DNA of 63,693 nt from Thermodesulfovibrionales bacterium (GCA_044450345.1 JBIOIY010000009.1:1-63693), one strand, 5' to 3'. Positions 46,281 through 55,200 are shown, numbered from the stretch's first letter. A program made the numbers.

Positions 46281-49200
46281 TAAACGATGGCAGAGGGAAA
46301 AATCCTTCTCGAAATAGTGACACCGCAGGGTCTGGTCTTCAGCGACGAGGTCGACGAAGTCACCGCTGCAGGAAGCGAAGGTGAATTCGGGGTCCTTCCC
46401 GGTCACGTGCCCTTTGTCACGACCCTCAAGATAGGCATACTCACCTGCAAGAAAGGGAACGAATCGAAGTACTTCTTCGTGAGCTGGGGCTATGCGGAGG
46501 TCGGCCACGAAAAGGTGATGATCCTTGCCGACAGCGCCGAGAAGTCCGAGGAGATCGATCTCGATCGGGCCATGGCAGCCAGGAAGAGGGCTGAAGAGAG
46601 ACTGAAACACGCCGAGAACGTCGACTTCGCAAGGGCCGAGTCAGCGCTCGAACGGGCTGTCACAAGGGCCCAGATTGTAGAAATAAGAAGAGTCAAATAG
46701 ATTTCGGGAAGTACAAAGATTAACGGAGGGTTTGCGGAGATTATCTGCAGACCCTTTTTTGTGCTGATAATGTAGTGCAGCAAATAAACAGCAAAGAGCG
46801 TCATTCCCGCGTCCGCACACAGGCGGATCCGCTCTCCTCGGCGAGTCGCCCGTGGCGACCGGGGAGGAAAGGCGGGAATCCAGGAATGCACTGGATTCCG
46901 GGTCAAGCCCGGAATGACAACGAATTATATATAACTTAGATGTACTGAGGTCTATGACCCAGTTACTTCATTATTCGATGCCCCCCTACCTTAGTAGGAT
47001 TGATATCTTTATCTAAAAACCGCACAGTATTCGGCGATAAGATAAATGAAGGTTCTCTAAAAAAAGAACGGTCTAACATTGTTACTGTTACGAGAACGTT
47101 AATATGCTTATAAGAGGCATTTATCTATGTTTTTTCTCTGGACAGTAGCGGTTTGAATAGAATATACTTGAAAAAATTAAAATTTGGCAGGACTGAAAAG
47201 ACAGCTTTAAAAATAGATTTAAAAAGTCTCGAAAATACTTTCGGAGGATTCGGAGATATGTCTTTCAGCAGGACCGCATTAATTTTGTTCTTGATCTTCA
47301 TCTTATCACCTTTCTCTACTCCCGCCTTTGCGATGTCGGAAGAAGAAAAGACTTTTCTGAGTATGTATTTTAAGGACGAGGAGCTGGAGATCATTTCTGC
47401 AACGAGGAGCCTTAAGTCTATAACTCGCATTGCGGAGAATATCGAGGTTGTGACAAAAGAAGATATTGAATTGATGAACGCGCATACGCTTGCGGACGTA
47501 CTGAATACGGTCAACGGTGTACAGGTTTTTCCCTTCGGAAACGCACCCGGAGACGCTGCGCAGGTATTCATCCAAGGTTCGGCATCAAAGCATGTTGCGG
47601 TGTTTGTCGACGGCGTTTCGATGAATACCTTAAGCGGCCTAACTGCCGATGTCGGCGCTATACCTGTCCAGTTTGTGGAAAAGATCGAGATCATCAAGGG
47701 ACCGGCCTCTTCGGCTTGGGGTTCGTCTTTGGGAGGCGTGATCAACATTATTACGAAGGCCGGCATGGCAGATAAAACAAAGGGGATGCTTTCTGCGTCA
47801 TACGGCGAACATAATACAGGTGATTTCAGGGCAGAGGCTTCGGGCGGAGAAGGGAAACTAGGGTATTATTTCACTGTTGGCCGTCTTCAGACAGATGGCT
47901 TCAGGCCTGGCAATGACTCTAACGGACATAACTTCTATACTAAATTGTCCTATGAAATTTCAAAGGATACTCAGCTACTGTTTACCACGTTTTACACAAG
48001 CATCGCACATCGGGAGCTCGAAATAGACCCCGACATATTTAGTGATAAGTTCAGGAATATGTTCATGACACTTGCGATGAATTCTTCATTGAGCAGAGAA
48101 CTGAACCTGCAGTTGTCCCTAAGGTATCATCAGGACATATTCGATTCTTTTACCGATGATACTCCGGATTTCTTTGATAAGGATGATACCTATGGCGGAA
48201 GCGCGAAGATGACGTGGCGGCATGAAAACCATGCTATTGTTGCAGGCCTGGATTATGATAATCAACGCCTGGCTTCGAGCGCCATCGGACAAGTACTGCG
48301 GTTTACTAGGTGGGCAGTCTATGCCAATGACACCATCACCCTCGGCAAATTCGCCGTGACGCCGGGCGTGCGATACGATTACACCGGCATTGCAGGTTAT
48401 TTCCTTAGTCCGAGTCTCGGCATAACGTATCAGGTCGCAGACAATGCCATTTTGAGGGCCTATGCAGCACGGGGGTTCAGCAGCATCGAACCCCAAATCT
48501 CGAGGGCGGACTTCGGTAGTTTCATCCATAATCCCGATATAAAGCCGGAGAAGGTGTGGTCTTTTCAACTCGGCGGAGAGGCTGGTCTTACAAAGTATCT
48601 CTGGCTGAAGGTCTCCGGGTTCAGGCATGAGATAAGGGACGCTGAACAGGACGTCGATCTACCGGGAGGGTTCTTTACAACGGTGAATGCGGCGCGGCAG
48701 AGGAGGCAGGGAGTGGAGGTCAGTATGAAGACGACGCCTATTTATAATTTCACGCTTTCCGCAGGAACAACGATAATTGACACAAAGGATCTAGATACCG
48801 GTGAGGATATAAAGACAGTTCCCACGAACACTTATGATGTTGCGCTGAAATACGACGATAAAAAGTCTTTTAGGGCCCTTCTGCAAGGTCATTTCATCTG
48901 GTGGAATATGGATGATTCGGGTAATGCTCAATACAACTCGGTAATTTGGGATCTCAATATGATAAAGAAGCTTCGCTCGGAGGGTAAAAGCACGTGGGAT
49001 ATTTTCGTCACCGCACACAACCTGTTCAATGGTTCGCAATATTGGCAACAGTATTATCAAAATGCCCGCAGATGGATAGAAGCAGGGGTAAGGCTTACAT
49101 TTTAGCTCAAAAGACCTCTTTCAGAGGGATAGTCTCATGAGAAAAGGAGGGGTGAAGATGAAAGGACGCATTGTAGTTTTGGACAAGGGAGTTGAAAAAA

Positions 49201-52200: not shown

Positions 52201-55200
52201 CAATCAGAGCGTCATCGGCTATGTAAAGGTCATACTCGATAAGGGCGTACTCAAACGGGAGATGAGGGCCATTTTGGTCAGGAACGCCCTCATTGCGGTA
52301 GTTTTTCTCTTTGCGGGCAGCATTGCCATCTATATCGCCATCAAAAGGGTCACCCTGCCGCTCACGAGACTTGCCGTCTCGGTGAGATCTCTTGGGAAGG
52401 GGGAAACGATCGACAAAGTCCCGGTGGAGTCGATGGACGAGATAGGAAGACTGGCGGTAGATTTCAACACCATGTACGACGACCTGAAGAAGAGGGAAGA
52501 GGAAAAAGAGGCCCTCGAAGAGCGGCTGAGGCATGCCCAGAAGATGGAGGCGATTGGGACCCTCGCCCGTGGGATCGCTCACGACTTCAATAATATCCTC
52601 GCGACCCTGAGAGGCTCTATCTACCTCATGGAGAAAAAGCTCCAGAAGCAGGTCAATGTGAAGCAGTATACCGGTCAGGTGCATAGTTCGATCACAAAGG
52701 CCCAGAACCTGATACGGGGACTTCTTACATTCAGCAGGACACAGACGATCAGTTCACGTCCGATGGACGTAAATAATATTATCAAAAGGCTTCAGCCGAT
52801 GCTCGTCAATATCGCAGGAGAAGATATCCGCATAAACATTTCTCTTTTTGAGGACCCCTTGATGGTGATGACCGACAGCATGCAGATGGAGCAGATCCTG
52901 ATGAACCTCTGTTCTAACGCGCGGGATGCAATGCCCGACGGGGGCGTGATTTTCGTATCGACGAGGGCAGAGACCGTCAATGAGGGCAAGCAGACCCTCG
53001 CTCCCGGCGAATATGCCGTTATTTCGTTGGGCGATACAGGTCCGGGCATGGATGACAGGGTCAAGGAGAGGATCTTCGAGCCTTATTTCACTACAAAGGA
53101 TGTGGGAAAGGGAACGGGCCTCGGACTTTCGATCGTATACGGTATAATAGAGCGGCATAAAGGGCATATCGAGGTGCACACGAAGAAGGGAGAAGGAACG
53201 GAATTTAGGGTATACCTGCCTCTCCTCGATGCACAAGAGGGAGATGCGGAAGGCGCGGCAGAGGACACTGCGGCAGAGGTGTGATGAATGGACAGAATAC
53301 TCGTCGTCGATGACGACAAGGACTTAAGAGGAATAGTCGGGGAGGTGCTGAAAGAGGAAGGCTTCGCGGTAACCGAGGCCGGCGACGGTATCGGCGCCGT
53401 CAAACTCTTCAGGAAGTCCCCCCCGGATGCGGTGCTGCTCGATCTGAACATGCCATATATGAACGGGATCGATGCCATGCACGAACTCAGAAAGATCGGC
53501 CCTGATGTGCCCATCATTATTCTGACCGCATACGGCGACATTCCCACGGCGGTGGATGCCATAAAGAATGGTGTCTATGATTTCATGATAAAGCCCCCTG
53601 AGTTCGACAGGCTTGTTTTTACCCTCCGGCGGGCGCTTGAAAAACGGCGGCTTGAGATTGAGGTCAAAAGGACCACCACCGCGCTTGAGTCGTCGCTCGA
53701 ACACCAGCTTGGCAGAAGCAGTGCAATGAAGACGGTCGTGAATCGGATCAAACAGGTGGCTCACACGAATTTTTCTGTCATCATCCAGGGGGAGACAGGC
53801 ACAGGGAAGTCGGTGGTGGCAGGCGCCATACAGAACCTGAGCGGGAGGCCCGATAGGCCTTTTGTGAGCGTAGACATAGGGCTGATCCCGGACCTCCTTG
53901 TAGAGAGCGAGCTGTTCGGGTATAAGAAAGGGGCCTTTACGGGCGCCGAGAGGGACAAGGCAGGCTATTTCGAGACCGCTCACAGGGGCACCATATTCAT
54001 AGACGAACTGGAAAACATGTCGCCCCATGTTCAGGGGAAACTCTTAAGCGTCATCGAGAGGAAAAAGATTTATCCTCTCGGAAGCACAAGCCCGGTGGAT
54101 GTGGATATCCGCATCATTGCGGCGACCAACAAGGACCTGAAAGAAAGCGTGGAGAGGAAGGCGTTCAGGGAGGACCTTTTTTACCGCCTGGGTGAATTCT
54201 TCATCACGCTGCCGCCCCTCAGAGACAGGGTTGAAGACATACCTTTTTTTGCGAGAAAATTCTCCTTTGAGGCCGGGACAGAACTCAATAAGCAGATCAA
54301 GGAGATTGACGGGAACGCCCTCGCGCTCCTTGTGAGGTATTCATGGCCCGGCAATTTGAGGGAGCTCAAGAACGTAATGAGAAGGGCGACCCTCCTTGCC
54401 GAAGACGATGTGATCGATCAGACATGCGTCGAGGCGTTGATCAGCAAACAGGGAAGCGAGAAAAGTGCGTGTCCGGTCGTGCCGCTGAAAGAGGCGGTCA
54501 GGGACCTCGAGAAGAGGATAATTATTCAGGCCCTTGTCAGGACGGAGGGGAACAAGACAAAGGCAGCGGAACTGCTCGATTTGAGCTACGCGACCCTTTT
54601 TGCGAAGATCAAGGAATACGGCATAAAGTAGGCATCCCTCGGAATACCCCCTGATACGGATCGTTTGCGAATGCAGCGTGGGACCGTCTTTTAGCTCATT
54701 CCCTGCCTGCCGGCAGGCAGGTCGCTTCGCTCCGAGGCATTTTCTCTACACGCCAATTATGAATACAAGGCGGGTGAATACGGGAAGATGAAACCGCTCA
54801 AAGACAGTCCCACACTGCGTATCTTCGGTGTCGGGGCCGAAGCCCATGTATTAATAAGATAACTATATGAAATCCCATATACCTTTATAGACTTTTTTGT
54901 AGTCATCCACGAACCCGCGTAGATGGCCGCTGTCAAAAATATCTTCTAAAAACGCCGGGTTGTAGCTTTCCTCATTTCTGGCCTTTTCTTTGCACGTATT
55001 TTTGTATCCCTTTTCTTACAATTTTGACGAAACAACAAAAGGAGAGATGACAAGGAGATATGATTCGAAAAAAGAAGGGTACTGATATGGACACATCGCA
55101 ACTCCTTTCTCCGCGAGAACGAGAAGTTCTCATGTGGTTGAGATGCGGCAAGACATCATGGGCCATATCGCTGATACTTAGGATAAGCGAGAGGACGGTA

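Follow-up and report, generated by a model that had tools for sequence, protein, structure and literature searches.

Linkage of a geopeptide-type RiPP locus in a Thermodesulfovibrionales bacterium with a dedicated TonB-dependent receptor and a binding-protein–kinase sensor

Introduction

Why would a gene for a small ribosomal peptide and its radical SAM maturase lie beside an outer-membrane receptor, a periplasmic binding protein and a sensor kinase? Such a locus occurs on contig C9 (JBIOIY010000009.1) of a Thermodesulfovibrionales bacterium, a Nitrospirota-type genome estimated to be 91% complete, within the 63,693-nucleotide stretch of DNA analysed here (the window). A preliminary description placed at 47258–54631 a TonB-dependent receptor (TBDR), a precursor, a TIGR04280 maturase, a PF04392 protein, a histidine kinase and a sigma-54 regulator, and this gene content is borne out. 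Here we add to that inventory a half-size MFS gene, a hairpin, a sigma-54-type promoter with a GerE/LuxR gene, a docking model and loci that hold the receptor module only. The best reading of the locus, to which we assign a probability of roughly two in five, is that a Cys-modified peptide is secreted, comes back in through the TBDR and meets its sensor in the periplasm.

Results and discussion

A geopeptide maturase and its short precursor

The maturase (434 aa; 49300..50604, + strand) scores 578.7 bits against TIGR04280 (cut-off 400), the NCBIfam/TIGRFAMs model of the geopeptide radical SAM maturase, a hypothetical equivalog whose precursor family is TIGR04229. Its CxxxCxxC motif (C94/C98/C101) and seven C-terminal Cys (C326, C345, C380, C383, C389, C393 and C409) are conserved without exception in 11 sequences, and the SPASM domain matches TIGR04085 at 59.7 bits. 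Score, CxxxCxxC motif, SPASM domain with seven Cys and an adjoining short precursor with a hydrophobic strand, Gly and CC all agree with the geopeptide pair. Matches at or above the TIGR04280 cut-off occur in 62 of the 317 genomes of the order; no paper naming the geopeptide families or a receptor or sensor linkage was found, the families themselves being curated.

Four maturases in the genome exceed the cut-off (617, 612.7, 603.4 and 578.3 bits), the eight remaining matches each reaching 67 bits at most, and scanning all 86 contigs in six frames for the motif returned exactly four precursors, one per locus, among them C57:17728-17826. In protein identity the C7, C57 and C67 copies are 84.6–92.0% alike, the C9 copy being 36.0–52.8% identical to them; the C57 receptor gene is indeed split, with the break inside its Plug domain, and only in the C9 and C57 loci is the binding protein succeeded by a kinase. 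In these respects the preliminary description stands. All four loci that it listed are present in the assembly, but their membership of one genome is not secure, given an rpoC-like gene on C67 that shares 44.5% identity with the genome's other rpoC and 46–47% with the copies of two genomes of the same genus (G280 and G284); judged by this gene, C67 may be of foreign origin. The near-complete G284 carries one cassette per type. The C7, C57 and C67 cassettes have a half-size MFS gene 3' of the maturase, and each of these contigs ends inside that gene. Three of the four cassettes are located at contig ends.

The C9 precursor, MKGRIVVLDKGVEKKSMVNSGCCKPGIAQNKV (32 aa; 49158..49256, + strand), was recognized by its motif (IVVLDKGV-x11-CC), its ribosome-binding site and its place before the maturase, whose start lies 43 nt beyond the precursor stop. 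The start codon is most likely the ATG at 49158, because a ribosome-binding site, AAGGAGGGG, lies just 5' of it and homologues begin 2–4 residues before the hydrophobic run; 49137 is another possible start. All four precursors of the genome share a hydrophobic strand, Gly, 8–14 residues and a CC near the C-terminus, a motif defined in the preliminary description and here rather than by the TIGR04229 curators. The curated model departs from the pair at this point: it catches one of 57 precursors (Geotalea, 40.5 bits), with 18 under the cut-off of 30 and 38 without a match; the C9 precursor scores 18.1 bits, and those of C7, C57 and C67 score nothing. A homologous CC-peptide was found at the same site in 55 of 60 loci of a first set, and a Cys-bearing small ORF just 5' of the maturase in 35 of 43 rows of a second. 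In the precursor cores nothing but this Cys or CC is invariant, and some cores have a single Cys only.

Between the precursor stop and maturase start codons lies a G+C-rich hairpin (49269..49292, + strand), formed by GGAGGGAGG, a 6-nt loop and CCTCCCTCC. Of 55 loci, 53 have an equivalent behind the precursor gene (MFE of −15 kcal/mol or lower within the 75 nt after the precursor), and its z-score against shuffles falls below −2 in 44 of the 55 (median −3.0).

Among models of thioether-forming RiPP maturases the enzyme scores 167.7 bits with TIGR04463, 154.6 with CefB and 137.5 with PapB, and its nearest solved sequence is 5wgg, which we take to be CteB. From SPASM thioether RiPPs (SCIFF/CteB, PapB ranthipeptides, sactipeptides), which share the CxxxCxxC motif with seven Cys, a Cys core and a short leader, we infer that the product most likely carries a thioether. 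The C9 maturase differs from the members of these families in staying below their cut-offs (340 for PapB; 97.9 bits against 425 for the SCIFF maturase), the core here usually has CC only, or a single Cys at some loci, and the known systems are without the TBDR, binding protein and kinase of the C9 locus. Antibiotics are among the RiPPs made by such enzymes, and the same kinship would suit an antimicrobial, for instance a sactipeptide- or ranthipeptide-type bacteriocin, with receptor and sensor serving immunity or induction. We consider this highly unlikely: the loci encode no immunity-type ABC transporter, leader peptidase or bacteriocin exporter, and a cell that placed the uptake receptor for its toxin in the toxin operon would be harming itself.

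A dedicated receptor, conserved across rearrangements

The TBDR gene (615 aa; 47258..49105, + strand) encodes an N-terminal Plug domain (PF07715, 74.9 bits) and a barrel of the 22-strand type (PF00593, 118.1 bits). The protein is BtuB-sized, lacks an N-terminal signalling extension and has BtuB and the colicin I receptor as its nearest solved sequences. Upstream, after the terminator of the atp operon (46725–46757), a candidate sigma-70-type promoter (TGGACA, 18 nt, TATACT; 47139..47168, + strand) serves the receptor–precursor–maturase operon; it agrees with the consensus at 10 of 12 positions, is the top match within 46600–56600, and coincides with a 9-mer, GAATATACT, that recurs in seven of the 16 regions compared upstream of related loci.

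To gauge how constant this association is, we considered 68 maturase loci that have 5 kb or more of sequence on either side; their genomes are of Nitrospirota and Desulfobacterota type, two phylum-level groups. A TBDR lies within 5 kb of the maturase in 67 of them, 62 of these within 700 nt; a binding protein is present in 61 and a kinase in 57 (absent from seven and 11, respectively), and TBDR plus both in 54. The Nitrospirota-type subset (n = 35) has 34 TBDRs, 28 binding proteins and 31 kinases, the other groups (n = 33) 33, 33 and 26. The receptor is co-directional in 33 of the former 35 and divergent in 19 of the latter 33; since its strand differs between the groups, the neighbourhood has outlived rearrangement, and chance is excluded as the source of the linkage. 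The earlier proposal thus holds as to a dedicated TBDR and a binding-protein–kinase pairing, while its two alternatives, metallophore and autoinducer, are not separated by any of the present results. A half-MFS gene adjoins the maturase in ten of the 68 loci; no further neighbour recurs in 100 loci, the biggest extra cluster being found in 12.

The reception genes also occur by themselves. A binding protein of this type without a maturase was found in 22 of 317 genomes, and 12 maturase-free loci all have binding protein and kinase, six of them with a TBDR. In one locus (L282) the precursor is truncated and the maturase reduced to a remnant of 59 aa, both lying between an intact receptor and sensor; some genomes, then, retain the receptor module with the maturase absent or lost.

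Could the receptor work outwards, releasing a peptide that the half-MFS or another pump had moved into the periplasm, with binding protein and kinase watching the periplasmic pool? The receptor gene leads the production operon in 42 of the 68 loci, the 100 loci hold no further gene for export across the outer membrane, and a case of TBDR-dependent secretion is reportedly known from Myxococcus. In the second genome group, however, the receptor gene mostly stands together with those for the binding protein and kinase, away from the precursor and maturase from which it so often diverges, and a TBDR at loci without biosynthesis genes would be senseless as an exporter. An outward role is therefore very improbable.

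The main rival is a chalkophore-like metallophore, a reading that we regard as somewhat unlikely: Cys residues, modified or free, would chelate a metal in short supply where conditions are sulfidic or anoxic, the TBDR would retrieve the loaded peptide, and binding protein and kinase would signal its arrival. Methanobactin operons encode the MbnA precursor, MbnBC, the MbnT receptor, the MbnE binding protein and the MbnM pump. Those operons and the present cassettes alike combine genes for a ribosomal Cys peptide, a maturase, a dedicated TBDR, a periplasmic binding protein and an efflux-type membrane protein, and that Cys or CC alone is invariant in the core would suit chelation. The four cassette receptors are, moreover, the only Plug-domain receptors of the whole genome, as expected for nutrition, and a nutritional role would thus fit them too; receptor-only loci are compatible with piracy of a public good. 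In contrast to methanobactin operons, the maturase here is a radical SAM enzyme and MbnB/MbnC-type proteins are absent, every gene of the locus belonging to another family; the binding protein is a PF04392 protein coupled to a kinase, and a two-component system with sigma-54 stands in place of a sigma/anti-sigma pair. Further against a metallophore, no metal-related gene recurs near the 100 loci, an inner-membrane importer is not encoded, regulation falls to a kinase and a sigma-54 activator rather than to a metal-sensing repressor (no search aimed at metal-repressor boxes was made), some precursors have a single Cys, and thiols would be consumed if the maturase makes thioethers like its nearest relatives.

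A binding protein predicted to dock on a sensor kinase

The PF04392 (ABC_sub_bind) periplasmic binding protein (50773..51714, + strand; 94.5 bits) probably starts at an ATG near 50812, and its translation has a hydrophobic, signal-peptide-like N-terminus. ABC permease and ATPase genes are absent from the C9 locus and likewise from the 100 surveyed loci, which fits sensing rather than import to the cytoplasm. The gene overlaps by 11 nt that of a sensor histidine kinase (51704..53284, + strand) whose periplasmic part is an sCache_4 domain (about residues 42–180), followed by HAMP, HisKA and HATPase_c.

A complex model of the binding protein with the periplasmic domain of the kinase, built with alignments made for this analysis, scored 0.64, the best control scoring 0.00; of 157 solved complexes 116 attain the mark applied, and of 215 mismatched pairs two do. 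Runs shared at least 88% of their contacts, with a partner pLDDT of at least 86. In the model a conserved kinase loop (147–162, EEALYF) lies inside the cleft of the binding protein. The binding protein is thus predicted to dock on the kinase as a LuxPQ-like mode requires. The gene overlap, the complex model and the receptor-only loci favour an extracellular product that is sensed or taken up.

Kinases that depend on a binding protein form an established class (LuxP/LuxQ, TorT/TorS, XylFII/LytS and HptA/HptS; PMC8050422). As described there for LuxP–LuxQ–LuxO, a kinase has a binding protein as the partner of its periplasmic domain, and the C9 output runs, as with LuxO, to a sigma-54 activator. 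Unlike all four systems, the C9 families are PF04392 and sCache_4, and the presumed ligand is a peptide of 2–3 kDa that would need a TBDR for entry into the periplasm; the word 'TonB' is absent from that review.

The same model admits a different thought, namely that the product is never secreted and serves as a cofactor or scaffold inside the cell or in its periplasm, the receptor–sensor module answering another ligand. With the kinase's own Leu-Tyr-Phe loop filling the modelled cleft, the binding protein could be a fixed co-receptor that does not bind peptide. Its solved relatives are 3lkv, 3lft and 6hni, and PF04392 proteins of solved structure bind Trp, Tyr or Phe, according to Table 1 of PMC10443332; the C9 type is also without an exporter. 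An unsecreted product is nonetheless improbable, as linkage in 67 of 68 loci through rearranged gene orders would be hard to explain without a common ligand, and so would the half-MFS gene beside the maturase.

Regulatory output

The kinase gene is followed by that of a sigma-54-dependent response regulator (53288..54631, + strand) with REC (PF00072, 100.1 bits), AAA+ (PF00158, 208.6 bits) and HTH_8 (PF02954, 49 bits) domains. Thirteen of the 35 fully flanked Nitrospirota-type loci, and none of the 33 others, have a homologue downstream on the same strand. Beyond it, a candidate sigma-54-type −24/−12 promoter element, TGGCCTTTTCTTTGCA (54979..54994, + strand), precedes a gene for a stand-alone GerE/LuxR-family HTH regulator (79 aa; 55060..55299, + strand; PF00196, 77 bits). 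Homologues of this small gene occur 3' of the regulator in eight distinct loci, and TGG[CT]-N8-TGC stands 5' of it in five of the eight, a sixth running off the extracted stretch; the GerE/LuxR gene is thus a likely target of the sigma-54 regulator. An Amidohydrolase_2 gene 25 nt further on (55324..56418, + strand; PF04909, 35.7 bits) is possibly co-transcribed with it, as a peripheral part of the system; homologues occur in six of 100 surveyed loci, every one of the C9 type. No sigma-54 promoter in a conserved place was found 5' of the receptor or precursor in the compared loci, and therefore no feedback loop is visible.

A model of the system

We propose two modules, production and reception, around one ribosomal peptide. 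The sigma-70-type promoter would drive the receptor, precursor and maturase genes, and the hairpin, as a leaky terminator-like element, would leave more message for the precursor than for the enzyme. The maturase would bind the conserved N-terminal strand of the precursor, (I/V)(V/I)VL(D/S)xG, and then alter the Cys or CC that is conserved within an otherwise variable C-terminal core. From the C7, C57 and C67 cassettes the product would probably be exported by the half-size MFS protein. At about 2–3 kDa it would exceed the porin limit, hence its return to the periplasm through the dedicated TBDR, where the PF04392 protein, seated on the Cache domain of the kinase, would read it; the kinase would then phosphorylate the sigma-54 regulator, which in turn would switch on the GerE/LuxR regulator from the −24/−12 promoter.

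Against this reading, the C9-type locus encodes neither an exporter nor a leader peptidase. Also counting against it, PF03544 (TonB_C) has no match in the genome at its present completeness, and the single ExbD gene (106.5 bits) adjoins a weak match to TIGR01352 (24.8 bits, cut-off 27.1). The loci that lack a binding protein or a kinase, and the missing sign of a feedback loop, tell against it as well. The near-constant linkage with receptor, binding protein and kinase still suggests a secreted peptide that is recaptured and sensed by the cell – a peptide that, with production and reception encoded side by side, would be a self-made extracellular signal.

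Organization of the locus

The locus lies downstream of ATP-synthase operon genes (43955–46700) and the terminator hairpin of that operon (46725–46757), and all genes from the receptor to a GerE/LuxR gene ending at 55299 are on the + strand. A TonB-dependent receptor (TBDR; 47258–49105) with Plug and barrel domains is followed by the small precursor ORF (49158–49256), the probable start of which is the ATG at 49158, with AAGGAGGGG just upstream and the translation MKGRIVVLDKGVEKKSMVNSGCCKPGIAQNKV; this peptide scores 18.1 bits on TIGR04229, under the cut-off of 30, the motif being nonetheless present. 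The radical SAM/SPASM maturase (49300–50604; 578.7 bits on TIGR04280, cut-off 400) is a member of its family by every feature testable in our analysis. There follow a PF04392 binding protein (50773–51714), a kinase with periplasmic sCache_4, HAMP, HisKA and HATPase_c domains (51704–53284) and a sigma-54-dependent response regulator (53288–54631). Beyond these lie the GerE/LuxR gene (79 codons; 77 bits on PF00196), an amidohydrolase_2 gene starting 25 nt past it (55324–56418) and a DUF3108 gene (56680–57873). Domain searches of the loci and the neighbours of 100 loci gave no ABC permease or ATPase near the sensor genes, and neither an exporter nor a leader peptidase is encoded in the C9-type locus, as we call the arrangement on this contig.

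A conserved receptor and sensor neighbourhood

In the window's order, 62 of 317 genomes exceed the TIGR04280 cut-off, as do 167 of the 239 in the order around the reference genome of Geotalea toluenoxydans, the sole named isolate with a true relative in an alignment scan that otherwise returned mostly MAGs; a single-protein scan for named cultured carriers gave no match. True relatives also occur in MAGs labelled Desulfuromonadales, Desulfobulbales, Desulfurivibrionaceae and Desulfobacterales, while the records of the nearest relatives carry the names Nitrospirae or Thermodesulfovibrionales. No RNA data are listed for the stretch, which was matched in 20 DNA runs (soil, peat and riverine metagenomes, three of them without an organism label).

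We fetched 103 maturase loci, removed one duplicate record and scored their six-frame translations with profiles made from the proteins of the window. Linkage was counted in 68 loci flanked by 5 kb or more in both directions, leaving out 35 loci that lay at contig ends or scored below 400 bits on the maturase profile. The preliminary description had tied precursor and maturase to a TBDR and a binding-protein sensor, and this holds well beyond the source genome: a TBDR lies within 5 kb in 67/68 loci (34/35 of the Nitrospirota type, 33/33 in other groups) and within 700 nt in 62/68 (33/35 and 29/33), a binding protein within 6 kb in 61/68 (28/35 and 33/33) and a kinase within 7 kb in 57/68 (31/35 and 26/33), with all three partners together in 54/68 (28/35 and 26/33). 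In 33 of the 35 Nitrospirota-type loci the receptor gene lies upstream in the same orientation; in the other groups it is divergent in 19 of 33, grouped with the binding protein and kinase. That the neighbourhood is kept across such rearranged gene orders argues for function. The source genome has no Plug-domain genes besides the four linked receptors, and four of its six PF04392 genes fall within these loci.

Clustering of the 675 other neighbours from 100 loci revealed no further recurrent family, the largest cluster occurring in 12 loci, and protease, exporter, TonB and metal genes were likewise never recurrent in more than 12 of the 100. The core is thus five genes plus either a half-MFS gene or a sigma-54 branch.

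Precursor peptides

The precursor ORF, 38–407 nt upstream of the maturase, encodes a hydrophobic strand, a Gly and a CC pair 8–13 residues before the end. It was found in 55 of 60 distinct loci of a first set, the remaining five comprising one contig end, one peptide that continues in frame, one with a single Cys and two with none. Of 43 rows in a second set, 32 had a CC precursor; three had a single Cys, five lacked upstream sequence and three had none. The N-terminal strand is conserved and the C-terminal part variable, the usual leader/core pattern of RiPPs. Three types occur in the order: aromatic tails (e.g. CCYGSFVPLRW) with a half-MFS gene and divergent sensor, small basic tails (e.g. 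CCKPGIAQNKV) in loci whose genes for binding protein, kinase and sigma-54 regulator lie downstream, and acidic leaders (e.g. EIEVLDGGID) with a half-MFS gene, then binding protein and kinase. On TIGR04229, one of 57 precursors passes, 18 are sub-threshold and 38 have no match, so these peptides will go unannotated.

Two departures from this plan were seen. In one precursor variant a long Lys/Ala/Thr-rich, histone-H1-like stretch replaces the hydrophobic leader strand, the end still being CC plus 8–10 residues (fetched loci L042:9767–9946, L046:9766–9945, L130:7770–7949, L135:9334–9513, L136:7792–7938 and L156:7806–7919). Tandem precursors, in two or three copies, occur in L128 and L158, each with two copies ahead of one maturase, and in L253 (G402:C1:2264697–2281896), where three copies accompany two adjoining maturase genes.

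Four cassettes in one assembly

The source genome (86 contigs, 91% complete) contains four maturases over the TIGR04280 cut-off, on contigs C57, C7, C67 and C9, and a six-frame motif scan returns exactly four precursors, one per locus, both as first described. Also reproduced were the split in the C57 receptor, where the break falls inside the Plug domain, and the reported identities, at 84.6–92.0% among C7, C57 and C67 proteins and 36.0–52.8% to those of the window. In these three cassettes kinase and binding protein share one strand, with receptor, precursor and maturase on the opposite one; only C57 has the kinase, a hybrid type with a receiver domain. Each runs on into an MFS-type gene, inside which its contig ends, a continuation that the preliminary description missed. 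In complete loci of relatives this gene has about 185–216 codons, half an MFS protein.

Whether all four belong to this genome is less sure than the sequences themselves. Adjoining the C67 cassette is a full-length rpoC-like gene (L011:5171–8962, minus strand, on a piece of C67) with 44.5% identity to the genome's other rpoC (contig C6), 46–47% to rpoC of the same-genus genomes G280 and G284, 54% to an extra rpoC-like copy in a third same-genus genome, G282, and 59% to its closest match anywhere in the order. Because of this divergence C67 may be co-binned or chimeric; the gene could come from a co-binned organism, result from a chimera or be a divergent paralogue, a second rpoC copy at 51–59% occurring in about 10 of the order's 317 genomes among the matches listed. 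The near-complete G284 carries a single cassette of each type. Several cassettes in one genome do occur elsewhere, with three on one 5.1-Mb contig of G402.

Receptor-only loci

A profile from linked binding proteins (threshold E ≤ 1e-45) matches 85 of the order's 317 genomes, 63 of which also have the maturase and 22 do not; four genomes have the maturase alone. We checked 12 loci from 11 of the 22: binding protein and kinase are side by side in 12/12, a TBDR is beside them in 6/12, and the maturase is present in 0/12. One such locus (L282; G033:C27:10395–27273) keeps intact genes for receptor, binding protein, kinase and sigma-54 regulator; what lies between receptor and binding protein is a decayed production module, made up of a truncated precursor and 59 residues of the maturase. 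In its sister genome G032, the maturase has two in-frame stops. Loss of production with reception kept is as expected for a shared extracellular molecule, either a signal or a public good.

We consider a signal the leading interpretation, with a probability of roughly 0.4: a radical-SAM-modified peptide would be made and released, pulled back through its private TonB-dependent receptor and sensed in the periplasm, with a cascade from the sigma-54 regulator to GerE as output. A metallophore would explain the Cys residues, the receptor and the receptor-only loci, and also why the organism has no other TBDRs; the loci have no metal-related neighbour or importer, and we regard this explanation as unlikely. 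That the product acts as a bacteriocin is very improbable and fits less well than either the signal or the metallophore.

Promoters, hairpin and downstream branch

The best sigma-70-type match of the region (47139–47168; 10/12 consensus positions) falls on a motif that related loci also conserve ahead of the receptor gene; the 9-mer GAATATACT occurs in 7 of 16 of their upstream regions. A -24/-12 element was not found at any conserved place upstream of the operon; the motif is scattered in 12 of 61 rows and absent there from the window, and we therefore reject a sigma-54 promoter as the operon's promoter. Such an element (TGGCCTTTTCTTTGCA, 54979–54994) does lie downstream of the regulator, in front of the GerE/LuxR gene. 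A small GerE/LuxR gene follows the regulator in eight distinct loci. A pattern match to the sigma-54 element is present in five of them, and in a sixth the extracted sequence ends too early to contain it in full. The amidohydrolase_2 gene recurs in six loci; it and the DUF3108 gene may be outputs of the sigma-54 promoter.

Directly 3' of the precursor stop codon is a G+C-rich hairpin (49269–49292). The 75 nt after the precursor fold at −15 kcal/mol or lower in 53 of 55 loci, with a z-score below −2 against 100 mononucleotide shuffles in 44 of 55, and many of these hairpins end in a U-run. In other RiPP operons such a hairpin raises the precursor message relative to the enzyme message, and by analogy we read this one as a putative leaky terminator or stabiliser that would do the same.

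The A+T-rich spacer upstream of the receptor gene also contains a G+C-rich stretch with inverted ends (46800–46920; GTCATTCCCGCG ... CCGGAATGAC), which looks like a small repeat element. A similar piece in L130 lies downstream of the sigma-54 regulator gene and upstream of a small GerE-type gene.

A candidate sensor pair

In the window, as in many relatives, the genes for binding protein and kinase share a few bases. We modelled the mature binding protein (residues 36–313) with the kinase periplasmic domain (residues 36–190), each with its own 26-row alignment. The complex scored 0.64, the best control 0.00. Among solved complexes 116 of 157 reach this mark, among mismatched pairs 2 of 215. 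The model runs have at least 88% of their contacts in common, and partner pLDDT is at least 86. The model thus supports, in silico, a putative binding of the protein to the kinase periplasmic domain, although part of the score may be general likeness, since solved complexes of other binding-protein/kinase families exist (excerpts of PMC8050422).

The predicted interface is the kinase loop 147–162, with L157, Y158 and F159, within the conserved motif EEALYF, as nearest contacts. In the model the loop touches residues of both binding-protein lobes, from which we infer that the contact site would be the cleft. An aromatic loop in this cleft is plausible because the ligands of solved PF04392 proteins are Trp, Tyr or Phe (excerpts of PMC10443332), and the idea arises that the peptide might compete with the loop–cleft contact or remodel it. 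The last periplasmic strand of the kinase (residues 172–182, VKVILDKGVL) resembles the precursor leader (RIVVLDKGVE; 49158–49256). Because this strand takes no part in the modelled interface, we treat the resemblance as probably fortuitous and rejected leader mimicry by the Cache strand.

How the signal would work

Coupling of production and reception is well supported. Several points count against the signal interpretation: the C9 type has neither exporter nor leader peptidase, the promoters seen give no sign of feedback, the binding protein might serve as a fixed co-receptor, and the TonB partner is uncertain. The 91% complete genome gave no match to PF03544 (TonB_C), and its single ExbD gene adjoins a weak TonB C-terminal match (C14:34985–36015; 24.8 bits, cut-off 27.1). 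A product that is never secreted fits less well than the signal or the metallophore and seems improbable; the same comparison goes against a receptor that transports outward, which is highly improbable.

A more specific form of the signal interpretation, which we hold to be doubtful, is that the modified peptide, re-entering by its private TonB gate, displaces or reshapes the contact of the PF04392 protein with the Cache-kinase loop EEALYF. Paralogous cassettes would then be separate channels, and genomes left with just the receptor, binding protein and kinase would receive a signal that they have ceased to send.

Relation to known systems and significance

Methanobactin operons combine a receptor with a binding protein, and by analogy the present system may work like a hybrid of that layout, a thioether RiPP pathway and a LuxPQ/LuxO-type sensor. 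It is a member of none of these. The solved enzyme nearest to the maturase is 5wgg, the methanobactin likeness is one of layout, and the LuxPQ/LuxO likeness is in mode of action (excerpts of PMC8050422).

Within the open full-text literature, with subscription journals and curators' model notes outside this scope, we found no paper on the geopeptide family or its linkage to receptor and sensor. Matches to 'geopeptide' were, in the excerpts retrieved, 'gageopeptide' Bacillus lipopeptides. Nor did we find literature on Geobacter SPASM radical SAM enzymes with TonB; the retrieved parts of PMC4289311 name Geobacter only for lasso peptides and do not contain 'TonB'. The window's cassette is real, conserved and uncharacterised, and its family is curated but unstudied.

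Peptide signals are well known in Gram-positive bacteria; to our knowledge, very few examples come from bacteria with an outer membrane, a barrier that a peptide of this size cannot pass by itself to reach a periplasmic sensor. If the signal interpretation is true, peptide, gate and sensor in one cassette would show a way across this barrier, provide a ligand for a widespread orphan sensor pair (PF04392 protein and kinase) and give a curated RiPP family its first function. Should the peptide be a metallophore instead, it would define a new class of ribosomally made metal carriers from anaerobes. Whichever applies, precursor and maturase form a pair small enough to be studied directly in a heterologous host.
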